Below are positions 14,645 through 14,980 of a stretch of DNA of 64,000 bases, piece after piece. The stretch's first letter is position 1. Each line of letters begins with the position of its first letter. Under the pieces are notes generated by a model, which had not been told where the DNA came from, made no database searches, and worked only from the letters and a program-made list of their open reading frames with translations. Position numbers and translations under genes: made by a program. This DNA is from an uncultured Clostridium sp. Its GTDB lineage: Bacteria > Bacillota > Clostridia > TANB77 > CAG-508. The stretch spans positions 223 through 64,222 of the forward strand of contig CANPOS010000004.1 of assembly GCA_947575745.1 (NCBI GenBank), written 5' to 3'.

Positions 14645-14980
14645 TGGTTGCGGGGGATAGACTCGAACTATCGACCTTCGGGTTTAGTTATCTATAATTT
14701 TCACTATAGGCTGGACTATGTCTTTACCTTGATAATATTGCAATATTATTTTAGGTAGTGGGTACTAAATCTGGTAATTAAGGAAACTCTATTCCTCCAG
14801 TAGTCTCTGCACCTTCTAAAAGTGTACTTTTAGCTTGGCTCAAAGTTAACATGATATTCAAATAAATACTTTAGCCTTCTTTGAATTCACCCACAGTTCA
14901 TCTACATATTTCTAAGTAGAGCCACAATTTACCTCTATGAGCCCGACGAGCTGCCAACTGCTCCACCCCGCGATGTTTCA
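14645..14980 (-). tRNA. initiator tRNA-fMet (CAU) gene split by an intron: 5' exon about 14936-14972, 3' exon 14645-14683
   Basis: Reverse complement gives CGCGGGGTGGAGCAGTTGGCAGCTCGTCGGGCTCATA...ACCCGAAGGTCGATAGTTCGAGTCTATCCCCCGCAACCA. It shows the C1xA72 mismatch, three G-C pairs in the anticodon stem, a CAU anticodon and a TTCGAGT T-loop. Confidence 0.75.
14684..14935 (-). ncRNA. group-I-like intron (about 252 nt) in the tRNA-fMet anticodon loop
   Basis: Contains IC3-type hallmarks GAGCCAAGC and GGTGCAGAGACTA (P7 region), as in cyanobacterial and Azoarcus tRNA introns. GTG within the 5' region (..AAATTGTGGCTC) could pair with the exon CAU (P1). Exact splice junctions are unresolved. Confidence 0.6.

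Follow-up and report, generated by a model that had tools for sequence, protein, structure and literature searches.

A group I intron with a conserved terminal A in the initiator tRNA gene of Clostridia-type gut bacteria

The terminal G of group I introns, omega-G, is treated as an invariant of their catalysis, as it shares its pocket with the attacking guanosine. To our knowledge, the sole natural precedent for a missing omega-G is the Coxiella intron Cbu.L1917, which reportedly ends in A and self-splices both in vitro and in vivo. Raghavan et al. (2007), as cited in PMC11270868, likewise announce in their title a natural group I intron of Coxiella that lacks the canonical omega-G. For tRNA genes, a recent survey recorded 333 group I introns in 4,934 complete genomes, with usual insertion sites at positions 33/34 in tRNA-fMet, 34/35 in tRNA-Leu and 36/37 in tRNA-Arg (PMC13011429, 2026). 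In the rows of its Table S5 compared here, the fMet examples, Bacteroidota among them, lie at 33/34 and none at 36/37, Bacillota_A has a single entry in tRNA-Asn (35/36) and none in tRNA-fMet, and every intron ends in G. The 36/37 family, which comprises introns of alphaproteobacterial tRNA-Arg and of Azoarcus, is described as self-splicing (PMC7717549). Here we describe a 252-nt intron with a terminal A that interrupts an initiator tRNA (tRNA-fMet) gene between positions 36 and 37, in a low-GC stretch of 64,000 nucleotides on contig CANPOS010000004.1 from an uncultured Clostridium sp. (assembly GCA_947575745.1). This whole stretch is referred to below as the window. We take 36/37 to be also the insertion site of the Azoarcus tRNA-Ile intron.

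A split initiator tRNA gene and its group I intron

The minus strand from 14972 to 14645 encodes a complete bacterial initiator tRNA, interrupted after the CAU anticodon by 252 nt (14936-14685). The first-pass annotation, made from the letters of the window, had proposed tRNA-fMet halves separated at exactly this point, and both the coordinates and the initiator features agree with it. The initiator signature is complete: a C1xA72 mismatch, G29-G31 paired with C39-C41, A11:U24, and CAU in a 7-nt loop. ARAGORN makes no call on the unspliced gene and, once the 252 nt are removed, calls a 76-nt tRNA-Met(CAU) (junction i36_j289). The gene stands alone, with its own predicted promoter and terminator, and its parts are as follows.

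14991 to 15019, minus strand: predicted sigma-70-type promoter of the split tRNA gene, TTGACA-17-TATAAT, 12 of 12 consensus positions (consensus match only)
14937 to 14972, minus strand: 5' exon, tRNA nt 1-36 (CGCGGGGUGGAGCAGUUGGCAGCUCGUCGGGCUCAU), with the anticodon CAU at 14939-14937; identical or near-identical in all clade A relatives (see below)
14685 to 14936, minus strand: IC3-like group I intron of 252 nt that separates tRNA positions 36 and 37, recognized by Rfam model RF00028 and by comparative folding
14645 to 14684, minus strand: 3' exon, tRNA nt 37-76, with encoded CCA (AACCCGAAGGUCGAUAGUUCGAGUCUAUCCCCCGCAACCA)
14604 to 14634, minus strand: predicted terminator, an AT-rich hairpin (ACAUUUACA / UGUAAAUGU) followed by a U-run, identified by eye

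The last of these is probably the terminator of the split gene; the terminator scanner demands at least three G-C pairs and therefore left the hairpin at 14634-14604 unreported.

Relatives were gathered by pattern scans anchored on the 5' exon, run on one genome per species and then on metagenomes. The former yielded six Clostridia/Clostridium metagenome-assembled genomes (MAGs) along with MAGs of Saccharibacteria, Yanofskybacteria and Omnitrophota, and the latter about 20 further loci (all loci are numbered here with the prefix L). Two clades sharing the guide AAUUGUG were distinguished. Clade A, with the guide AAUUGUGGCUC, comprises 12 distinct complete sequences, that of the window included, whose sources are MAGs of Clostridia and metagenomes of gut or termite origin. 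Clade B, with the guide AAUUGUGACC, was aligned as 13 distinct sequences from bacteria of the candidate phyla radiation (CPR) and metagenomes, namely L023 (Saccharibacteria), L030 (Yanofskybacteria) and about 11 metagenome variants. Batch scans with Rfam in gathering mode missed L001, which is identical to the window, and most clade A loci, and this reflects a filter effect rather than absence.

From the model match and the comparative fold, we conclude that the 252-nt insert is a genuine group I intron. RF00028 aligns from end to end (model positions 1-253) with 14949-14692, at 84.7 bits and E = 4.2e-20 against a gathering score of 50 bits, so that the covariance-model check proposed along with the initial “group-I-like” label came out clearly positive. 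The fold model was written on an alignment (A1) of 12 distinct clade A precursors, window included, on which all clade A counts below are based, and comprises the four stems of the tRNA and, in the intron, P1, P2, P3, P4, P5, P5a, P6, P7 (in a pseudoknot with P3), P8, P9, P9.0, P10 and one extra hairpin. Standard pairs fill 97.7% of the 1,153 cells given by the 98 modelled pairs, and 25 of the 98 pairs have changed on both sides, with compensatory changes located in P2, P3, P4, P5a, P6, the extra hairpin, P8 and P9. When partners were slid by 1-3 columns, pairing was 35-44% and 0-7 pairs had changed on both sides, and none of 500 shuffles reached the observed pairing values. Folding of the single sequence recovers P2, P3, P6, the extra hairpin, P8 and P9 (z = -1.97).

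The surrounding tRNA is conserved in the same alignment. Pairing is complete (100%) in the acceptor and D stems, the T stem has four sequence versions that all pair, with three covarying pairs, and at acceptor pair 7:66 two sequences have A-U where the other 10 have G-C. As the change at 7:66 spans both exons, the tRNA halves must work together and evolve as one helix. The conserved intron fold and the conserved tRNA stems thus indicate that ribozyme and tRNA are both under selection, which argues that a mature tRNA is made. These data also bear on the idea that the 252 nt are no intron at all and represent, for instance, a mobile-element scar that came to lie in the anticodon loop by chance. 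Remnants of integrase attachment sites do cluster at the anticodon loop in this group (see below), but a covariance-model E value of 4e-20 and covariation in every peripheral helix refute such an insertion, to which we assign a practically negligible probability.

The ribozyme elements needed for the following argument are located as follows.

14919 to 14927, minus strand: internal guide region UUGUGGCUC, in which UU forms P10 with A37 and A38, GUGG forms P1 with CUCAU, and CUC can extend P1 onto G29-G31
14801 to 14807, minus strand: 5' strand of P7, G(A)GACUA, containing the bulged A and the G partner of the guanosine-binding G-C pair; six pairs, all invariant, and identical in the omega-G sister clade
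14771 to 14800, minus strand: extra hairpin of 30 nt between P7 and the P3 3' strand (CUGG-AGGAA...UUCCU...CCAG), with compensatory changes in three of its five inner pairs
14713 to 14718, minus strand: P7 3' strand UAGUCC, the helix being invariant in the 12 sequences
14692 to 14709, minus strand: P9 hairpin, whose last base G14692 is the end of the Rfam model and not of the intron
14685 to 14691, minus strand: 3' tail AUAACUA, in which CU pairs with AG of J7/9 (P9.0) and A14685 occupies the omega position

IC3 introns of the Azoarcus type are built with GNRA loops L2 and L9 and receptor motifs in P8 and P5. In the clade A alignment, and by sequence only, L2 is GAAA throughout, a GAAA is also present in the P9 loop, P8 has CCUAAA...(C/U)A(A/U)GG and P5 has GCUAAA...AUG. 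Two core motifs, GAGCCAAGC (14841-14833, minus strand) and GAAGGUGCAGAGACU (14815-14802, minus strand), match IC3 rows of Table S5 in PMC13011429, so that the IC3 hallmarks noticed at first sight are the same motifs as in the IC3 tRNA introns of those rows. The accompanying reading of GAGCCAAGC and GGTGCAGAGACTA (14813-14801, minus strand) as the two strands of P7 holds in part: both are present and GAGACUA within GGTGCAGAGACTA is the P7 5' strand, but GAGCCAAGC is the P4 3' strand running into P6. Clade A, clade B and, as far as the rows of that table were compared, its IC3 introns all have the same P7 helix, G(A)GACUA / UAGUCC. One element departs from the IC3 type, which has no peripheral domain between P7 and P3': the covarying 30-nt hairpin at 14800-14771. 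Clade B introns do not have it, and it recurs in introns of crAss-like gut phages, with about 85% identity over the core. By the two core motifs we describe the core as IC3-like, plus one extra hairpin, and file the intron as a variant group I intron on account of its missing omega-G.

Splice sites and the terminal A

The 5' splice site is defined by P1, which pairs U36-G (wobble), A35-U, C34-G and U33-G in 12 of 12 sequences, and which can be extended onto G29-G31 with C32 bulged, a layout that clade B has as well. The GTG at 14925-14923 (minus strand) had been suspected of pairing with the exon CAU, and this guide pairing is indeed present throughout the alignment. A candidate P10 is formed by the two U residues 5' of the guide with A37 and A38, invariant and paired in all 12. 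At the other end of the intron, the CU preceding the terminal A pairs with the AG that follows P7 (P9.0; AU and GC, 12 of 12). At a third P9.0 position, two sequences have U-G and the other 10 C.A; this is a single linked change in two sister sequences, which we regard as suggestive only and do not count as covariation evidence.

Which nucleotide ends the intron was approached by passing 1,800 exon-end combinations through ARAGORN, a tool too permissive to act as a filter here. A 76-nt tRNA emerged only from the CAU|AA junction and its sequence-identical shifts, and U36|A37 is the sole junction that restores the 7-nt CUCAUAA loop; A14685 is therefore the last intron nucleotide. The 3' ends of clade A read (A/G)UA(A/G)CUA|AACCCGA, with the terminal A in 12 of 12, and in clade B a G stands directly before AACCCGA in 13 of 13 sequences. 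The first-pass annotation had seen the A before the 3' exon and had taken it as a sign that the splice sites or the function of the intron were in doubt. The base at 14685 is indeed A, but its invariance across the clade speaks against decay or mis-set splice sites. In our interpretation of the alignment, the terminal A is a fixed trait of the clade and not a lesion. Judged from its sequence, the guanosine-binding G-C pair beside the bulged A in P7 is canonical; clade A, as we read it, couples a canonical G pocket with a terminal A, and the pocket is not re-tuned.

Two other placements of the splice sites were considered. A 5' splice site at U33, giving a CUA (amber) anticodon, was rejected: most members would still need a non-G end, and the sister clade cannot form such a P1. 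The nearest G to the 3' junction is G14692, 7 nt upstream, which is invariant in clade A and is where the Rfam model stops. If this last base of P9 were used as omega-G, the product would retain AUAACUA and would be either a decoy or a tRNA-like RNA whose loop is expanded. G14692, however, belongs to the closing pair of P9 (C-G in 12 of 12), and its homologue in the sister clade is followed by a tail of 9-35 nt that leads to the true omega-G directly before AACCCGA. P10 and P9.0 place the junction at 14685/14684, and at least 6-7 extra loop nucleotides, making a 14-nt anticodon loop, would render the conserved initiator features pointless. We therefore hold the use of G14692 to be very improbable.

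We consider it probable that the insert is a selectively maintained group I intron between U36 and A37, with an IC3-like core, that is spliced to give a normal anticodon loop and whose terminal A is a trait of the clade. In the mechanism we propose, the guide GUGG of the folding precursor would pair with the exon CUCAU to form P1 with its U36-G wobble. Exogenous guanosine, bound in the canonical G-C pocket of P7, would then cleave after U36, a step that can be expected to proceed normally. The 3' splice site would be held by P10 (A37 and A38 with UU), by P9.0 (CU with AG) and by the tRNA anticodon stem, so that U36 could attack the bond after the terminal A14685 and leave a normal CUCAUAA loop. 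The anticodon stem, P10 and P9.0 would thereby substitute for the omega-G contact, possibly with the aid of a protein, and ligation may be slow.

Several points weigh against this reading. From established ribozyme work, an A should bind poorly to an unchanged G-C pocket and exon ligation should be slow. The core helices P1, P7, P9.0 and P10 are invariant and provide no covariation evidence of their own, and the 12 sequences are akin, so that some compensatory changes are counted more than once. Splicing at the CAU|AA junction, alone or with a helper protein, is something that we infer. Finally, the relative L013 has an intronless tRNA-fMet 4.2 kb from its intron-bearing copy, and the latter need not be essential there.

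The same observations could be read as the mark of a splicing-defective relic, in which omega-G has been lost, exon ligation fails, and the gene survives as a pseudogene or dead cargo while initiation depends on another tRNA-fMet. A terminal A beside a canonical G-binding pair is what such a relic might show; tRNA finders miss the gene; the locus is a mosaic of mobile elements, in which dead copies pile up; and L013 retains an intronless copy nearby. A relic is hard to reconcile, however, with a terminal A fixed in 12 diverged sequences that have 25 compensatory pairs and 97.7% pairing, with exons that covary (7:66, G-C to A-U), or with a promoter that is a perfect consensus. Moreover, in L008 and L020 the intron-bearing copy lies directly behind the chromosomal promoter at a housekeeping locus that is syntenic, and no further copy is visible there. 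Overall, we regard a relic as unlikely, and retain the maintained, spliced intron as the preferred interpretation.

Mobile elements and attachment sites around the split gene

The window locus is a mosaic of mobile elements: the tRNA gene is flanked 3' by a relaxase gene and a split C5 methylase gene, and 5' by a recombinase fragment, HU and an antitoxin-like gene. Directly upstream of the tRNA promoter, a 114-aa open reading frame (ORF; 15152-15496) consists solely of the zinc-ribbon domain of a large serine recombinase and is a recombinase remnant. The C5 cytosine methyltransferase, inside the relaxase element, occupies two ORFs (12803-13330 and 13350-14141) and is probably frameshifted or disrupted; a Pfam search with ORF 13350-14141 gave no match. 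Several metagenome contigs contain these same 20 kb with 100% identity. One of them, L001, is otherwise identical to the window but parts from it exactly one base past the tRNA CCA (window 14644/14645, L001 8449/8450); beyond this point a DUF5906 element follows in L001, and the element with relaxase and methylase in the window. An insertion junction thus coincides with the 3' end of the gene, which is a second insertion hotspot. Integrase genes also lie just past a tRNA 3' end in L017 and L061.

A second intact tRNA-fMet was not found within the 64-kb window, where the only other trace of this tRNA is a 3' fragment some distance away, accompanied by an integrase gene.

32775 to 34292, plus strand: tyrosine integrase gene, 505 aa (PF00589, 1.1e-18; PF14659, 5.2e-15), adjoining the tRNA-fMet fragment
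34373 to 34393, plus strand: ATTAGGGAA repeats in tandem, beginning some 60-80 nt before the core, which may serve as integrase arm-type sites
34445 to 34499, plus strand: intronless tRNA-fMet 3' fragment, nt 22-76, with the anticodon stem-loop core at 34450-34466 and the loop CTCATAA at 34455-34461

The fragment is an attachment-site remnant; it and the 3' exon of the intron-bearing gene make up an inverted repeat of 47 nt. Repeats equivalent to the putative arm-type sites flank fMet fragments in L061, L083, L013 and L075.

A separate tRNA-Arg(CCU) locus of the window (55416-57197) is laid out like the fMet loci but has no intron. In order, there are a host 5' fragment (55416-55454, nt 1-38), a gap of about 130 nt with tandem GTTT(T)CCCCAG repeats (55542-55561), a complete tRNA-Arg(CCU) (55583-55659) whose acceptor and anticodon stems differ from those of the fragment, and then a tyrosine integrase gene on the minus strand (55782-57197). 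ARAGORN and Rfam call the complete copy only. Elsewhere in the window, long internal direct repeats occur in coding regions at 36733-38559 (81-nt and 300-nt units, about 37-38.5 kb) and at 59366-61600 (268-nt units in a 667-aa Cthe_2159-like ORF). These ORFs appear to encode repetitive surface or secreted proteins unrelated to the intron.

Across the two clades, additional intronless fMet fragments broken in the anticodon loop were found at 7 of 15 clade A loci, the window included, and at 0 of 15 clade B loci, although clade B makes a weak control, mobile elements being scarce in CPR genomes. In L013, L070, L073 and L075, a 5' fragment of the intronless type (CATAA...) lies behind the host promoter, ends at nt 38-41, and is located about 190 nt upstream of the intron-bearing gene. 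L061 and L083 have a 3' fragment that starts at nt 32, about 210 nt from that gene and in divergent orientation. From these fragment ends, the 7-nt anticodon loop is the crossover region, and the intron therefore lies inside it, at CTCAT|AA. L013 further contains an intact attP-like site, in which the stem-loop mimic CTCGGGCTCATAAACCGAG is framed by arm repeats on either side, directly upstream of its second, intronless tRNA-fMet, which has two stem mismatches. The island between its two tRNA-fMet genes (2415-6046) encodes a C5 methylase, an Eco47II-type restriction enzyme and a 435-aa protein. No integrase was present in this island; the 435-aa protein was considered as a candidate and set aside, having neither similarity nor a Pfam match. 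In the setting of L008 and L020, the intron-bearing gene is 96.5-99.7% identical from genome to genome and the flanks 72-88%, a contrast that points to horizontal spread or allele replacement.

Taken together, these contexts suggest that the intron-bearing gene belongs to, or has spread via, integrative elements that cut tRNA-fMet in the anticodon loop. Such elements appear to split their target tRNA and to bring their own copy, and an intron inside the core may act as a breaker of the attachment site, whereby the copy carried by the element would not offer a second one. We tentatively extend this to a mobile-element strategy, which we see as possible but distinctly less probable than the maintained intron itself. 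Elements would split the host tRNA-fMet at CTCATAA and carry an intron-shielded replacement, so that the intron spreads without a homing endonuclease, and the terminal A would be tolerated or tuned. In this scheme, an element would integrate in the host anticodon loop without restoring it, and would supply a replacement tRNA-fMet beside its own attachment site. The initiator anticodon stem could not be changed without loss of identity, so a self-splicing intron at CTCAT|AA would shield the replacement. If the leftover 5' fragment then recombined with the 5' exon, the intron allele could become fixed behind the chromosomal promoter. A terminal A might be tolerated or tuned here, the 3' splice site being kept in place by the tRNA scaffold.

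The window itself fits this scheme incompletely, and two observations limit the attachment-site interpretation. Its tRNA copies are inverted rather than direct, with no left junction in the window, whereas L013, L070, L073 and L075 have one about 190 nt from the intron-bearing gene. A comparison for an empty site turned up none among contigs with the right flank, all of which share the same junction, two of them starting exactly at 34445.

Searches beyond the two clades returned a few other introns and inserts. In phage and plasmid databases no record carried the whole element: plasmid matches covered the 5' exon only and phage matches the intron core only. A pattern scan for viral contigs with tRNA-fMet and the guide sequence gave 20 matches, all by chance and rejected. 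The crAss-like phage cr6_1 (NC_055894.1; L085, 1235-2203) has a group I intron (96.7 bits) with the post-P7 hairpin seen in the window. It adjoins RAGATH-7-assoc and RAGATH-9 RNAs, an endonuclease gene on the opposite strand overlaps its 3' part, and no annotated host gene was found around it. In an Omnitrophota MAG (L029, 2653-3036), the tRNA-fMet gene contains a group I intron (62 bits) that has CAU at either end and, with an omega-G, fits the classical 33/34 site. In an Altiarchaeota MAG (L031, 1547-1704), an initiator-like tRNA contains a 51-nt insert after CAU that is not group I and is probably an archaeal protein-spliced intron. Within clade B, the tRNA-fMet intron of the metagenomic locus L062 measures 662 nt, against 190-290 nt in its relatives, and may hold an ORF such as a homing endonuclease.

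Comparison with known tRNA and rRNA introns

What sets clade A apart is a diversified natural group of introns with a canonical pocket but a terminal A, located in a tRNA on which each translation initiation event depends. For ribozyme and tRNA specialists, the main interest lies in this conserved loss of omega-G, and the possible avoidance of attachment sites is a newer, tentative reading. The omega-A clade offers a natural test bed for how far positioning by the anticodon stem, P10 and P9.0 can replace omega-G recognition, and it turns a single-species curiosity in Coxiella into a comparative data set. It also extends tRNA group I introns to Clostridia-type gut bacteria. In practice, split genes of this kind escape standard tRNA finders, and the genomes that carry them can seem to be without an initiator tRNA.

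The nearest known system by host gene is the cyanobacterial tRNA-fMet intron (Biniszkiewicz et al. 1994; the I-Ssp6803I intron), which has the same host gene and ribozyme class as the window intron. The first-pass annotation had equated the two arrangements; this cannot stand, as the known fMet site is 33/34 in the Table S5 rows of PMC13011429 and the window intron lies at 36/37, has no homing endonuclease ORF and ends in A. Relative to that part of the survey, the window intron is at another fMet site than the classical one, in a lineage with hardly any recorded, and with a differing terminal base. By insertion site, it resembles the introns of alphaproteobacterial tRNA-Arg(CCU) and Azoarcus tRNA-Ile(CAU), which also lie directly 3' of the anticodon. 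These are likewise small and without an ORF, with a GUG-type guide that pairs with the anticodon and, as far as the tabulated rows go, the motifs GAGCCAAGC and GAAGGUGCAGAGACU. The window intron differs from them in its host, an initiator tRNA of a Clostridia-type bacterium, in its extra P7-P3' hairpin and in its terminal A.

The Coxiella burnetii 23S rRNA intron Cbu.L1917 is, like the window intron, a natural group I intron without the canonical omega-G (by the title cited above). It is one sequence from one species, in an rRNA and of subgroup IB2, whereas the window intron belongs to a diversified omega-A clade, in a tRNA, with an IC3-like core. Closest of all is the CPR sister clade B, which has in common with the window the gene, the site, the AAUUGUG guide, P7, and the order of P9, tail and splice site. 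Unlike the window clade, it has omega-G, is without the extra P7-P3' hairpin, and shows attachment-site fragments at none of its 15 loci.

For the proposed link with integration, the nearest parallel comes from archaea, where tRNA introns at attachment sites have been suggested to keep elements from integrating (Randau and Soll 2008; Sugahara et al. 2012, PMC3293823); the window intron likewise lies inside an integrase core. A 5' tRNA fragment just upstream of an intron-bearing copy is also the geometry described for Caldiarchaeum (PMC3293823). The present case differs in being bacterial and in relying on a group I intron instead of a protein-spliced bulge-helix-bulge, and its link to integration is drawn from genomic context. 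If this link is true, it would represent a bacterial, ribozyme-based counterpart of the protection of tRNA genes against integration by introns, and a route of intron spread without a homing endonuclease.

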